45,883 nucleotides of DNA from an uncultured Candidatus Saccharibacteria bacterium (GCA_964561655.1 CAZLQG010000002.1:1-45883), one strand, 5' to 3'; positions 1 to 45,498 are shown, counted from the stretch's first letter. Notes: generated by a model not told the origin, from the letters alone. Translations and numbers: made by a program.

Positions 1-666
1 TAAAATCAGATTCATTAAATCTTTTTTGGGTAATTTTTGTGCTGCCTCTATAATTTCCTTTAAGACAACATCAGTTGCCATCCAAGTCAAAGCCTGATCC
101 AAATCCTGTGCTGTAGAAAGCCTTTCTACTGCCGGATAAAGCAAACTGTTGAATTTCATAAATGCAGCCTCGTTTAAGTCAGGGTGTTTCGTAAAAGCTT
201 GCATGCTCCCATACTGTTTAATAAAGATTCTTATACTTTGGATCGTATTTTCCCTTGACCTTTCTAAATCTGTTCCTTCTTTACCCGTGTACATCTCATG
301 CATTGCAGCATTTACCAATAAATTCCAAAATACAGAATAATCCAAATTATGCAGTAAAAATTCTTTTTGTTCTTTCGTAAATCTTTTTGTCTTTGACAAG
401 AAAGCTTGAACGGCATCTTTCTGCTCTCCGCCGATTTTTATTCTAAATCTAGCCAAGGCGCTTTGCTGTTCTACCTGATCCAACATTAAAGCAATCTCAT
501 TCATCCGGATGCCCAAAGAAGGGTCCCTTTTAACCTGAATTCCCAGATATAGCCTATCTGTATCGGTTAGCGCGCTGAAAGCGGGATTCTCAAACAATTC
601 TGTCAAGCTCTTTTCTCCGTTTGGCTCCCTATCCGGACCATTTGATCTTGAACTTTTTTCATTCAT
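1..666 (-). CDS. hypothetical protein, N-terminal 222 codons only (ORF runs off the left edge)
   Basis: My translation of the minus strand from ATG 666 gives MNEKSSRSNGPDREPNGEKSLTELFENPAF... It stays open to position 1. It is absent from the ORF track because there is no stop in the window. TGgTATAAT ends 6 nt upstream of the ATG. Confidence 0.6.
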   Translation of the reverse strand, partial: MNEKSSRSNGPDREPNGEKSLTELFENPAFSALTDTDRLYLGIQVKRDPSLGIRMNEIALMLDQVEQQSALARFRIKIGGEQKDAVQAFLSKTKRFTKEQKEFLLHNLDYSVFWNLLVNAAMHEMYTGKEGTDLERSRENTIQSIRIFIKQYGSMQAFTKHPDLNEAAFMKFNSLLYPAVERLSTAQDLDQALTWMATDVVLKEIIEAAQKLPKKDLMNLIL

Positions 667-21557: not shown

Positions 21558-21600
21558 ACCCGCCCGCAACGACTTCGTCGTAGCGAAGTCGGGCGGGTAA
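21558..21600. repeat. REP-like GC-rich palindrome
   Basis: TACCCGCC-cgcaa-CGACTTCG-tcgtag-CGAAGTCG-GGCGGGTA lies just downstream of the yqeY-like gene. No U-tract follows it. Confidence 0.6.
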
Positions 21601-21609
21601 TTTGGAATT

Positions 21610-22050
21610 TTATTTCAAAAGTTCTTTAAGCAGCTTTGCAAGCGTAGCTCCGTCTACCGTTGAGCCTACTTTTGCTTTTAATACTCCCATGGCTTTGCCA
21701 AAATCTTTTTGGGTAAAACCGTTCTCCGCAATCACGCTACTTATGATTGGGCCTAATTCTTCTTCTGAAAGCTGCTTGGGAAGATATTTTTCCAGGATAC
21801 TTACTTCCTGAGTTTCCTTTTCCGCTAATTCCGGCCGGCCGCCCTGCATGTAAACGGCAGCAGCTTCTTTGCGTTTCTTGCTTTCCGACCTTATCAGCAC
21901 CACAATTTCTTCTTCGGACAAATCTTTGCCTTTGGCGATTTTTTCATTGGCGATCCTGGTTTTAAGCCCGCGCAAGACATCTACCGCGACCTTTTCTTTT
22001 GCTTTAATCGCAGCGGTTAAATCCTGTTCTATTTGCTGTAATGAAATCAT
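21610..22050 (-). CDS. GatB/YqeY domain protein
   Basis: 146 aa. The sequence, and its position directly after rpsU as in the Bacillus rpsU-yqeY pair, fit the YqeY family. Confidence 0.8.
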   Translation of the reverse strand: MISLQQIEQDLTAAIKAKEKVAVDVLRGLKTRIANEKIAKGKDLSEEEIVVLIRSESKKRKEAAAVYMQGGRPELAEKETQEVSILEKYLPKQLSEEELGPIISSVIAENGFTQKDFGKAMGVLKAKVGSTVDGATLAKLLKELLK

Positions 22051-25143: not shown

Positions 25144-25218
25144 TGGTGGACGGTGCAGGATTTGAACCTGCGGCCCTTGCAATGTGAATGCAATGCTCTA
25201 CCGCTGAGCTAACCGTCC
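25144..25218 (-). tRNA. tRNA-Val (anticodon CAC), CCA encoded
   Basis: Hand fold: GGACGGT-TA-GCTC-AGCGGTA-GAGC-A-TTGCA-TTCACAT-TGCAA-GGGCC-GCAGG-TTCAAAT-CCTGC-ACCGTCC-A-CCA. Confidence 0.95.
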
Positions 25219-41151: not shown

Positions 41152-41334
41152 CTACCAATATAGGGGCATATTGCGAACGGTTTCTGCCGTCCTTACTTTT
41201 TGTTCGGATAACTCCAGCGTAGCTGGATCTGTCCCTTGCTTTTTGAACCCCGACTCTTCGCCGAAGTTTTCTTCTGTCTGTTCCTCTCTTTTACGCGGTT
41301 CCCATGTGGGACCGCCCTGAGCGGTTTCTGTCAT
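41152..41334 (-). CDS. small acidic, likely disordered protein (60 aa)
   Basis: MTETAQGGPTWEPRKREEQTEENFGEESGFKKQGTDPATLELSEQKVRTAETVRNMPLYW. GAGGAG SD about 8 nt upstream of the ATG and its own terminator. Confidence 0.45.
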   Translation of the reverse strand: MTETAQGGPTWEPRKREEQTEENFGEESGFKKQGTDPATLELSEQKVRTAETVRNMPLYW

Positions 41335-41535
41335 CGCTATTTTCTCCTCTTCCAAATTGTATTTTGGCCTTGAGACCAAAAAATAAAAGTTAAATTTTAA
41401 CTTCAATTTTCTGGTCTCAAAATTATTATTGTTCGAACGATCTACCCGACTACGCTTTGACAAAATCAAGGCGGACGGGAGTCGAGAATGTTCTGCTTAA
41501 AAATTTAGCTTTTCGATAAACTTAAAGACTAAATT

Positions 41536-41584
41536 TTAAAAAAGGTGAAAGGAAGCCGGGCCGGGTACTACTGGTCCGGCTTCC
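41536..41584 (-). terminator. rho-independent terminator after the GC-rich segment
   Basis: GGAAGCCGG...CCGGCTTCC followed by TTTCACCTTTTTT on the minus strand. Confidence 0.7.
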
Positions 41585-41606
41585 TTGGTTATGGAGATGC
41601 ATGGCA

Positions 41607-41843
41607 TTACCCCCTTATCCGCATAGGATTAAGGGCGAAAAACAGGGGTTTGCCCTTACATTCCGGGCACCTATTGTCGAGGGCCGACACCTGCTGCAGA
41701 CAGCCTGTGCAGAGATGAAATGCCCGGTTTTGGGGAAGTCGTAGCCCCATAAGCCACCCCGCCTGGCGAATCCGAATCCTGACTGGTAACTTGCACAGCC
41801 ACCAGTCCAGCAAGAGACGCACGATGATCCATGCTTTACGCAT
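41607..41843 (-). CDS. small zinc-ribbon protein (78 aa), or spurious ORF inside a structured GC-rich RNA
   Basis: GGACGAGGAGGAAGC-ATG gives a strong SD. MRKAWIIVRLLLDWWLCKLPV...CTGC-x11-CPEC. GC content is visibly above the surrounding sequence. Other frames are also open, so coding is uncertain. Confidence 0.4.
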   Translation of the reverse strand: MRKAWIIVRLLLDWWLCKLPVRIRIRQAGWLMGLRLPQNRAFHLCTGCLQQVSALDNRCPECKGKPLFFALNPMRIRG

Positions 41844-41919
41844 GCTTCCTCCTCGTCCCGCGGCAAGGCGGGACATTCCTGATTGTTGTTGGTTCGCTTG
41901 CCCGTCGGGGCAAGCTAGG

Positions 41920-42011
41920 TAGGGATACTCAGATTCGAACCAAGATTTCATCCTTTCGGAGCCTTCAGACGGCTCTCCTTGGATGCGTCCTAACCCTTAG
42001 ACGATATCCCC
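41920..42011 (-). tRNA. tRNA-shaped gene with a 27-nt anticodon loop region that forms a second arm (non-canonical; not assignable)
   Basis: Hand fold: GGGGATA-TC-GTCT-AAGGGTTA-GGAC-G-CATCC-[AAGGA GAGCC GTCTGAA GGCTC CGAAA]-GGATG-AAAT-CTTGG-TTCGAAT-CTGAG-TATCCCT-A. U8, G18G19 and the TTCGAAT T-loop are all canonical. Confidence 0.6.
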
Positions 42012-42013
42012 AC

Positions 42014-42044
42014 AAACAAAAAACCGAGCTCACGTTGAGCCCGG
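42014..42044 (-). terminator. intrinsic terminator (candidate attenuator) 2 nt upstream of the tRNA-like gene
   Basis: Minus strand reads CCGGGCTC-AACGT-GAGCTCGG (8 bp, one G.U) followed by TTTTTTGTTT. Confidence 0.7.
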
Positions 42045-42083
42045 AAGTCTTAAGTCAAATCTTTGTTCGTGTAATTCGTGCGA

Positions 42084-42179
42084 TTAGTGCATTTGTGAAT
42101 TCAACTCAAAATTTCTGGCCTCAACGTGCCCAGTAAAAAAGTAAAAGAAAAACCAGAAATTTTGAGAGAATTTATTCAT
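42084..42179 (-). CDS. 31-codon aromatic-run mini-ORF (candidate leader peptide)
   Basis: MNKFSQNFWFFFYFFTGHVEARNFELNSQMH, translated by hand codon by codon. The ATG lies 9 nt after the -10 hexamer and has no SD. Confidence 0.4.
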   Translation of the reverse strand: MNKFSQNFWFFFYFFTGHVEARNFELNSQMH

Positions 42180-42188
42180 ATTTGTCTT

Positions 42189-42216
42189 ATTATAGCAGGA
42201 TTTTTACTCTTGTCAA
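42189..42216 (-). promoter_or_regulatory. near-consensus sigma70 promoter
   Basis: Minus strand reads TTGACA (42216-42211), 16 nt, TGcTATAAT (-10 at 42194-42189). Confidence 0.7.
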
Positions 42217-42307: not shown

Positions 42308-42688
42308 ATGAACAAAAAAACCTTCAAAATTATCCAAATTATCACTGCCATGGTTTTAGGCGTAACCGTGGCCGTTTCCGTTAATTTAGGCAACTATCTG
42401 CTGGCCACGGCGGCAATTCTCGCGGCCTTTGGCTTTTTATACGTCTTAAAAAGCAAGGTCAAGGAAGTTCTGGCCGACGAGCGCGACTACCAAATCGCAG
42501 GCAAGGCCTCACGCATGGCCATTACCATTTACGTTGTTGTCCTAACTCCCATTGGCGTTGCTATGATGGCTTTGTCCAAAACCCATCCGCAATTTGAGTA
42601 CACAGCCAGCGTTTTACTCTACTCGGTCTGTGGCCTGATGCTTTTGAATGCGGCTTTGTTTAAAATTTACAACCGCCACGGGGAATAA
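42308..42688 (+). CDS. DUF2178-like membrane protein
   Basis: 126 aa with four hydrophobic helices and a central LADERDYQIAGKA motif. It is followed 4 nt later by a small XRE regulator, the usual pairing. Confidence 0.7.
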   Translation: MNKKTFKIIQIITAMVLGVTVAVSVNLGNYLLATAAILAAFGFLYVLKSKVKEVLADERDYQIAGKASRMAITIYVVVLTPIGVAMMALSKTHPQFEYTASVLLYSVCGLMLLNAALFKIYNRHGE

Positions 42689-42691
42689 TTT

Positions 42692-42886
42692 ATGCGCAAC
42701 AAAATCAAAGAACTAAGAGCCAAGTTTAATCTGACGCAGGAAGAACTGGCGCAAAAAGCGGGGGTCAGGCGCGAGACCATTGTATTTTTGGAAAAAAACA
42801 AATACAATCCTTCCTTGGCTTTGGCATACAAAATCGCCAAGGTGCTTAAAACCACCATTGAAGAACTTTTTGAATTTGAAGATTAA
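42692..42886 (+). CDS. XRE/Cro-type helix-turn-helix transcriptional regulator
   Basis: 64 aa: [45 protein letters not shown]. Confidence 0.9.
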
Positions 42887-45421: not shown

Positions 45422-45498
45422 GCCCCGTTAGCTCAGCCTGGTAGAGCAGTTGCCTTTTAAGCAAACGGTCGCAGGTTCGAATCCTGCACGGGGCACCA
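45422..45498 (+). tRNA. tRNA-Lys (anticodon TTT), CCA encoded
   Basis: Hand fold: GCCCCGT-TA-GCTC-AGCCTGGTA-GAGC-A-GTTGC-CTTTTAA-GCAAA-CGGTC-GCAGG-TTCGAAT-CCTGC-ACGGGGC-A-CCA. Confidence 0.95.

Follow-up and report, generated by a model that had tools for sequence, protein, structure and literature searches.

In the mascRNA/MALAT1 tRNA-like elements, RNase P and 3'-end processing are recruited by a tRNA body that lies within a longer transcript, and engineered tRNA scaffolds carry a foreign hairpin in place of the anticodon stem-loop. Insertions in the anticodon loop are known as the bulge-helix-bulge (BHB) introns of archaeal and eukaryal tRNA genes, located at 37/38, and as the group I introns of bacterial tRNA genes. 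Natural decoding tRNAs leave the 5-bp anticodon stem by one pair (6 bp) or by a small break only (PMC7609411). Oversize tRNA genes with anticodon-loop insertions are an already known, unexplained kind: Lak megaphages have tRNAs with 'highly conserved' and 'enigmatic' introns, perhaps common in large phages, for which no mechanism was given (Devoto et al., 10.1101/356790).

Here we describe a gene that resembles the Lak genes in being oversize, in being left unclassified by bacterial tRNA finders, and in carrying an anticodon-region insertion of no recognised intron class. The Lak insertions are strongly conserved (10.1101/356790); the insert here has no homolog in the collections searched. Whereas the Lak genes lie in phages, with anticodons assigned by eukaryote-mode tRNAscan (10.1101/356790), this gene is a chromosomal singleton of a CPR bacterium, and no canonical anticodon loop can be restored from it. 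It is further distinguished by its position under an apparent leader-peptide attenuator and by its neatly stacked second hairpin. We tentatively propose that it is of mobile origin and goes back to a tRNA-Glu gene of the G1.U72/A73 type, and that it encodes an accessory tRNA-like RNA that does not decode and is processed from a read-through transcript, a reading to which we give somewhat less than an even chance.

A tRNA-like gene with an extended anticodon arm

The gene was found in the window (the whole stretch of DNA analysed, 45,883 nucleotides). Its main features are:

41920..42011, minus strand: tRNA-Glu-type tRNA-like gene of 92 nt, composed of acceptor, D arm, extended anticodon arm, 4-nt variable loop, T arm and discriminator A, then C-C-U (Rfam RF00005 at 38.6 bits, ARAGORN -i -ps, sequence, identity to viral tRNA-Glu genes)
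41949..41985, minus strand: extended anticodon arm (minimum free energy, z-score, chance estimate)
41959..41975, minus strand: inner hairpin with a 5-bp stem and the 7-nt loop GUCUGAA (sequence, fold, shuffling)

Read on the minus strand from 42011, the 5' half of the gene is GGGGAUA-UC-GUCU-AAGGGUUA-GGAC-G-CAUCC, and the 3' half, running to 41920, is GGAUG-AAAU-CUUGG-UUCGAAU-CUGAG-UAUCCCU-A, followed by CCU. Direct reading gives an acceptor stem GGGGAUA/UAUCCCU of 7 pairs with G1.U72, a D arm (GUCU-AAGGGUUA-GGAC) with G18 and G19, the variable loop AAAU, and a T arm CUUGG-UUCGAAU-CUGAG with two G.U pairs in its stem. The outer anticodon stem, CAUCC/GGAUG (41985-41981 / 41953-41949), encloses 27 nt in place of 7, AAGGA-GAGCC-GUCUGAA-GGCUC-CGAAA. 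Within this insert the inner stem GAGCC/GGCUC (41975-41971 / 41963-41959) carries the loop GUCUGAA (41970-41964) and is separated from the outer stem by the internal loop AAGGA/CGAAA; the 27-nt module of internal loop, 5-bp stem and 7-nt loop roughly doubles the length of the anticodon arm. All 26 pairs of the gene are standard or G.U, with no mismatch, and the tertiary-contact nucleotides U8, A14, G18, G19, A21, G53, T54, Psi55, C56, A58 and C61 are all present.

The structural claims and coordinates of a preliminary description of this DNA were all right when read directly on the minus strand, with some refinements. Its 5x5 internal loop can be read from the sequence, but RNAfold adds a G-C pair and a bulged A, so that the loop may instead be 3x4. 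Its statement that CCA is not encoded is right for A76, which is missing, but not for C74 and C75, which are encoded after the discriminator (A-C-C-U); the two true tRNAs of the window each have CCA encoded in full.

The inner hairpin exceeds what chance would give. Folding of the 37-nt arm yields -14.2 kcal/mol (z = -3.2), a value equalled in 1 of 200 shuffles. Among shuffled inserts, 6e-4 have a perfect 5-bp stem with a 7-nt loop in the centre, and 5.5e-3 have one at any position. The likeness of the inner loop to an anticodon loop, which had also been pointed out, is a different matter: U at the 33-equivalent, CUG, and A at 37 are indeed there, but the 32-equivalent is a G, atypical of an anticodon loop, and U33 with a purine at 37 would alone occur by chance about 1 time in 8. 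This likeness has little statistical weight because of that first base.

Decoding tRNAs have a 7-nt loop with U33 and a purine at 37 on a stem of 5 or, rarely, 6 bp, whereas here the outer stem encloses 27 nt and the inner loop lies about 10 layers too far out for the decoding position. As encoded, therefore, the gene cannot read codons. It shares with the decoding tRNAs of unusual stem length (PMC7609411) a departure from the 5-bp anticodon stem on a retained L-shaped body, but its additional 5 bp and 5x5 internal loop go far beyond any known decoding tRNA.

The preliminary description had not recognised the tRNA-Glu type of the body. The body has exactly the D arm and variable loop (UCGUCUAAGGGUUAGGACG ... 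AAAU) of tRNA-Glu(UUC) genes, 7 of the 9 IMG/VR matches to the 15-mer TCTAAGGGTTAGGAC are tRNA-Glu(UUC) genes, and the tRNA-Glu of a crAss-like phage matches at 20 of 20 positions. A viral scan yielded many ordinary tRNA-Glu(UUC/CUC) genes of 72-73 nt with the acceptor GGGGNNN/NNNCCCU, G1.U72 and A73, to which our gene is 78-84% identical outside the anticodon arm. On these sequence comparisons the body is glutamate-type, and since the viral tRNA-Glu genes share G1.U72 and A73, these features are native to the lineage and not signs of decay. In E. coli tRNA-Glu, the 13-22..46 'augmented D helix' and the missing nucleotide 47 belong to the identity rules; here a D arm with U11-A24 and U13.G22 and a 4-nt variable region without nucleotide 47 are present, and a YUC anticodon is absent. 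With the G1.U72/A73 subtype of tRNA-Glu the gene thus has in common the acceptor GGGGNNN.../...NNNCCCU-A, the D arm UCGUCUAAGGGUUAGGAC, the 4-nt variable loop and the T loop UUCGAAU. It differs in that 27 nt replace the loop YUUUCAN with its Glu anticodon, in that A76 is not encoded, and in its two T-stem G.U pairs.

Standard searches pass over this gene: default ARAGORN and a default Rfam scan of the window report only the Val (25144-25218) and Lys (45422-45498) tRNAs. With laxer filters than the default fast ones, which miss the gene, the Rfam tRNA model matches 41920-42011 on the minus strand above the gathering score of 29, with the 27 nt placed at the 7-nt loop (E-value 2e-6 locally, 1e-4 for the whole window). 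ARAGORN, the intron mode of which had been suggested as a check, does call the gene when introns are allowed, but only at a lowered threshold and as 'tRNA-Ser(cga)' with a 20-nt intron at 31/32. We regard this isotype as arbitrary: its loop would have C33, and a variable loop of only 4 nt is incompatible with a bacterial tRNA-Ser. As the gene is skipped by standard tRNA finders, similar elements go uncounted in CPR and phage genomes. At a lowered threshold ARAGORN also reports a 93-nt 'tRNA-Lys(ttt)' at 21574-21666 on the plus strand, which finds no support in the sensitive Rfam scan and is probably a false positive.

It is possible in principle that the extra 20 nt are removed by a mechanism undescribed in bacteria or phages, such as has been proposed for the 'enigmatic introns' of megaphage tRNAs, and that the product decodes. 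Oversize phage tRNA genes have been published (10.1101/356790), some Glu/Gln-type genes in IMG/VR keep CUG or UUC intact and have their insert exactly at 37/38 (L042, L047, L053, L059 and others; L046), and ARAGORN is able to model a 20-nt intron. We nevertheless consider such an intron unlikely. Contiguous excisions of 20 nt leave UCCGAAA, ACCGAAA, AACGAAA, AAGGAAA or AAGGAGA, and all eight possible 7-nt loops lack U33 and lack an in-register anticodon for Glu or Gln; the mini-intron offered in the preliminary description is weakened accordingly, and the ARAGORN solution has the defects just described.

The known intron types fit no better, in agreement with that description. A script search of the gene (two 3-nt bulges, 4-bp helix, G.U allowed, 2-bp flanks) found no BHB motif, which together with the missing U33 loop excludes a BHB-type intron. 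A group I intron is rejected by size (20 extra nt, compared to a ribozyme core of more than 200 nt) and by the absence of an Rfam Intron_gpI match. Our gene is like both classes in having its insertion in the anticodon loop, but unlike them in size, in intron match or BHB motif, and in leaving no functional loop after excision.

Several other candidates were tried and rejected. Neither ARAGORN nor Rfam finds a tmRNA at the locus, where pair 3-70 is G-C and not G3.U70, and sensitive scans gave no match to an intron, tmRNA or other Rfam family. The consensus sequences of the kink-turn, loop E and hammerhead core could not be fitted to the arm by eye, and the window holds no partial tRNA copy that would indicate an integration-site duplication. 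The sequence GCCGTCTGAA, which equals the Neisseria DNA-uptake 10-mer, occurs in the inner hairpin (41964-41973, minus strand) and only once in the window, consistent with chance.

An attenuator-like leader and a GC-rich cassette

The surroundings of the gene contain the following features:

42189..42216, minus strand: sigma-70-type promoter, TTGACA-16-TATAAT with TG, 12 of 12 positions (sequence)
42084..42179, minus strand: leader ORF MNKFSQNFWFFFYFFTGHVEARNFELNSQMH (translation; alignment with L014, L018 and L038)
42105..42166, minus strand: leader hairpin CUCAAAAUUUCUGG...CCAGAAAUUUUGAG, with a compensatory change in L018 (alignment)
42014..42044, minus strand: intrinsic terminator with a 9-bp stem and U6GUUU, ending 3 nt before the tRNA-like gene, conserved in relatives
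41896..41915, minus strand: 3' trailer hairpin GCUUGCCC-CGAC-GGGCAAGC, 5 nt past the discriminator (sequence, fold)
41607..41843, minus strand: 78-aa zinc-ribbon ORF (CxxC...CxxC) with the strong Shine-Dalgarno sequence GAGGAGGA (homolog P0121, Cys pattern, GC profile)
41538..41584, minus strand: terminator hairpin and U tract, which end the cassette transcript (sequence, fold; hairpin seen on the plus strand too)

The upstream part forms a unit (42014-42216 in the window, minus strand) that is conserved in three related loci: L014 (7480-7665), L018 (7470-7650) and L038 (5395-5570). It consists of a strong promoter, a 27-31-aa ORF rich in Phe, Trp and Tyr (QNFWF[FY]F...NF[EG]L), a 12-14-bp hairpin within that ORF, a GAC(U/C)UAAG motif and an intrinsic terminator. 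In the relatives, a Shine-Dalgarno sequence and then a small Cys-rich ORF come after the terminator, and no promoter separates them from it. Since small ORFs follow the terminator without a promoter of their own, the unit looks like a leader-peptide attenuator. In the window, moreover, CACGUUGAG at the apex of the leader hairpin is complementary to CUCAACGUG in the terminator. Searching the unit against Rfam gave a weak Phe_leader match only (20.9 bits).

In the window, the tRNA-like gene and then two hairpins, GAGGAGGA, the 78-aa ORF and its own terminator follow this unit. The only promoter-like site upstream of the gene is that at 42189..42216; none was found between the terminator and the gene. 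GC content rises from 25-39% in the leader to 50-62% across 41560-42000, and the step coincides with the cassette; the gene indeed sits directly behind the candidate attenuator and at the edge of a GC-rich islet, as first described. The 78-aa ORF has 55-60% GC in a genome of 42% GC, and only this GC-rich cassette of about 470 bp looks foreign.

A single relative of the 78-aa ORF was found among 1.84 billion representatives (P0121; E 2.9e-6, 45% identity, same Cys pattern). It is a 99-aa protein on a 511-bp contig (ENA ERZ27297570), on which 177 nt precede it, just enough for a tRNA-like gene. No relatives of the ORF were found in IMG/VR, and Pfam, PHROGs and PADLOC returned no informative family for it; its AlphaFold2 model is poor (pLDDT 50).

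Beyond the cassette, a long AT-rich hairpin (41366-41424) contains UUGAGACCAGAAAAUUGAAGUUAAA (41397-41421, minus strand), which resembles the 3' arm of the leader hairpin: it is identical to 42096-42120 (minus strand) at 20 of 25 positions, as are about 1% of shuffles. Possibly this sequence arose by partial duplication and delimits the inserted cassette on its far side. The AT-rich hairpin is followed by a 60-aa acidic ORF (41152-41334) and then by a terminator shared with L014.

On the larger scale the locus has a conserved order: pilin, a 482-aa protein, a variable spot, an AbrB/MazE-like gene, an HlyD-like gene, an ABC ATPase and two FtsX permeases. Homologs of the 482-aa protein are named Candidatus Doudnabacteria or Patescibacteria, and the flanks of the tRNA-like gene are conserved Doudnabacteria chromosomal synteny, not a phage genome or a tRNA cluster. 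The spot itself varies among Doudnabacteria. Between the 482-aa gene and the leader promoter the window has a DUF2178 membrane protein and an XRE-type HTH regulator (42308-42886, plus strand), a pair that is missing in L014, L018 and L038; in L017 the variable spot holds a radical SAM gene, and in L034-L037 the whole leader unit is missing.

The GC-rich cassette that holds the tRNA-like gene is not in the related genomes examined. The gene is absent from L014, L018 and L038, though these share the promoter, leader, hairpin and terminator, and neither ARAGORN nor a covariance model of the element turns up anything similar at the locus of any relative. As relatives lack this copy, their tRNA-Glu must lie elsewhere, and by parsimony the copy in the window is presumably an extra gene. 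The cell would then not need it for decoding, which further reduces the case for an intron. Simple decay of a local tRNA, another option that had been raised, is unlikely for an extra copy with an intact body in a lineage-specific cassette.

We searched widely for relatives of the element itself. The pattern AAGGAN5GTCTGAAN5CGAAA has only chance matches in coding DNA in IMG/VR, from which the exact 5' and 3' gene halves are also absent, and BLAST against phage records gave nothing significant. Neither GTDB species representatives nor JGI metagenomes yielded the element in body-anchored scans, which returned only the unrelated L030 and L032 and one irrelevant match. A covariance model built from the element, the other search that had been suggested, brought no examined locus above the score of an ordinary tRNA-Glu. 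With the patterns used, no homolog of the insert turned up among GTDB species representatives, in JGI metagenomes or in IMG/VR, and by sequence the element is a singleton in the reachable data. In contigs of other samples the locus is either identical across the gene or carries one SNP at 41892, outside it. Probing with a spurious antisense ORF led only to a strain variant, which has this single SNP.

These results bring up an alternative that is almost as probable as the accessory RNA, namely that the gene is an inert relic: a tRNA-Glu that was disabled when a small hairpin was inserted into its anticodon loop or replaced it, arrived with the GC-rich ORF cassette and is too young for further decay. 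A relic would agree with a destroyed anticodon, with absence from all relatives examined, with a GC-rich islet that suggests recent acquisition, and with the occurrence of truncated and half tRNA-Glu genes in viral contigs, where this gene type is evidently often rearranged. It would also agree with the lack of a separate promoter, and with three observations that count against an accessory RNA: the gene is a singleton, a strong terminator immediately precedes it, and it has lost A76, unlike the true tRNAs of the window. Against an accessory RNA, too, the insert has no homolog in the collections searched and the population variants are identical across the gene. A relic is harder to reconcile with 26 pairs without a mismatch and intact tertiary-contact nucleotides, with an insert that forms a perfect centred hairpin, and with the conservation of comparable phage inserts (see below). 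If the cassette is recent, however, an intact body need not reflect selection, and the evidence fits a functional tRNA-like RNA and a young inert relic almost equally well. If the gene is a relic, it would mean that small foreign cassettes with tRNA-derived pieces enter a variable spot of Doudnabacteria genomes.

A predicted read-through RNA and oversize tRNA genes in viral contigs

For the accessory RNA that we tentatively favour, the following route can be proposed. The tRNA-like RNA would be made only when transcription reads through the attenuator terminator, as the 5' part of the ORF mRNA. RNase P would cut its 5' end and the tRNA 3'-end enzymes the other, thereby separating leader, tRNA-like RNA and ORF mRNA; with its intact acceptor/T-arm helix and C74-C75 the transcript is a plausible substrate for both. 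The cuts would release a stable RNA of about 92 nt and at the same time trim the ORF mRNA. The released RNA would display a hairpin in the anticodon position, like an engineered 'tRNA scaffold', and an arm longer by about one helical turn would keep it out of normal decoding and block its anticodon-dependent charging by GluRS. The mascRNA/MALAT1 elements and the tRNA scaffolds differ in being eukaryotic or artificial, and here the processing is only predicted.

Four lines of evidence speak for this accessory RNA. The first is the form of the gene, with an Rfam match that tolerates the insert, a stable and non-random arm and a complete set of pairs; the second is the combination of native tRNA-Glu features with an insert from which no excision restores a loop and which has no BHB motif. 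The third is its setting, as a probable extra copy with no promoter after the terminator and a GC step that delimits the cassette. The fourth comes from phages, in which Glu-type analogues with unrestorable loops of 20-28 nt lie in tRNA clusters and have well conserved inserts.

A relaxed IMG/VR scan gave 36 loci. About 25 of them form complete cloverleaves, with at least 6/7 in the acceptor and at least 4/5 in both the anticodon and the T stem, and have 18-36 nt in the anticodon loop. With the covariance model of our element, these loci score 45-51 bits, equal to ordinary tRNA-Glu. The window element has what characterises the oversize phage tRNAs, a complete cloverleaf with an unexplained anticodon-loop insertion. 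The first impression that no bacterial RNA class of this shape had been described has to be qualified: the insert has no homolog, but the overall form is not unique, since oversize Lak megaphage tRNAs are published (10.1101/356790) and IMG/VR has more than 20 Glu-type examples.

The viral genes are of different sorts. One group has a Gln(CUG) anticodon, U73 and the insert directly after CUCUGA, that is at 37/38 (L042, L047, L053, L058, L059, L062, L064, L068, L073); the stems read GGUUCCA...UGGAACC-U and the inserts are 11-29 nt long. The bodies look eukaryote-like when compared to eukaryotic tRNA-Gln, and the group may come from viruses of eukaryotes. L046 (UUC) and L054 can also be restored to a canonical loop.

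Another group has a constant Glu-type scaffold, GGGG[AAG/TGA/AGA]...CUCC-A73-C74, on phage contigs of about 50-57 kb, with very different arm regions of 20-28 nt, none of which can be restored to a canonical loop (L043/L049, L070/L072/L086, L071, L052, L045, L075, L060). These genes lie in clusters with normal tRNAs and oversize tRNAs (L052 6587-6717, 131 nt; L070 4773-4868, 96 nt). A wider listing of the family that includes L096 has a hypervariable anticodon-arm region of 8-28 nt.

In L061 an inner stem GAGCC/GGCUU is stacked directly on the outer stem and followed by UUCUCAC and 11 nt, and L048 and L055 have hairpins ending in CUGAUCA. L030, L032 and L057 have exactly 27 nt between the anticodon-stem strands, as in the window; the L030 insert is identical to ours at 15 of 27 positions (p ~0.005), a similarity that no shared inner stem supports. 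This last element (L030 2585-2676, L032 910-1001, L057 1031-1122) has a Glu-type body with G1.U72 and an invariant CUUUGA; it is phage-like, with 27% GC, lies beside a permuted tmRNA-like gene and a tRNA-Thr, and is filed under a 'Halomonas' MAG.

In close pairs the insert has changed no more than the body: between L070 and L072, 1 of 27 positions differs in the insert and 6 of 65 in the body, and between L030 and L057 the figures are 2 of 27 and 6 of 65, with compensatory changes in the T stem. It is conceivable, if improbable, that these genes and ours belong to an unrecognised class of non-decoding 'tRNA-scaffold' RNAs, in which a constant body carries an exchangeable module of 20-30 nt and which would be widespread in phages and active as decoys or regulators, not adaptors; this copy would have been captured by a CPR bacterium under a leader-peptide attenuator. 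The constant tRNA body may in such a class provide processing and stability.

A more specific proposal would be that the element is a decoy or mimic, in which the tRNA-Glu body titrates a tRNA-binding protein (a nuclease, a modification enzyme or GluRS) or the loop GUCUGAA, which contains GAA, pairs with an RNA. The body is indeed kept, including the 'augmented D helix' pattern and the missing nucleotide 47, the phage contigs pair a constant Glu-type scaffold with hypervariable arm modules, and phage tRNAs that counter tRNA-targeting defences have been described. PADLOC and PHROGs, however, point to no specific defence, nuclease or phage gene beside the tRNA-like gene, and the locus contains no sequence complementary to the loop, so that pairing with a nearby RNA was rejected. 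A decoy function is wholly inferential, and we regard it as very unlikely.

A stable 92-nt accessory RNA would amount to a natural counterpart of engineered tRNA scaffolds, and to a chromosomal, regulated example for the unexplained insertions in phage tRNAs. Remodelled-arm Glu-type tRNA genes are common in viral contigs and pose a broader and more testable question than a single locus; the pattern of constant scaffold and variable arm in IMG/VR is the more promising lead.

Viral contigs also contain other rearranged Glu-type genes (L115, L116; L077, L078, L101, L110, L112, L118). Some have shortened anticodon arms (67-70 nt), and others consist of a 5' half that is not followed by a T arm within 170 nt. 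L112 starts with GGGGATATCGTCTAG, the acceptor strand of the window element.
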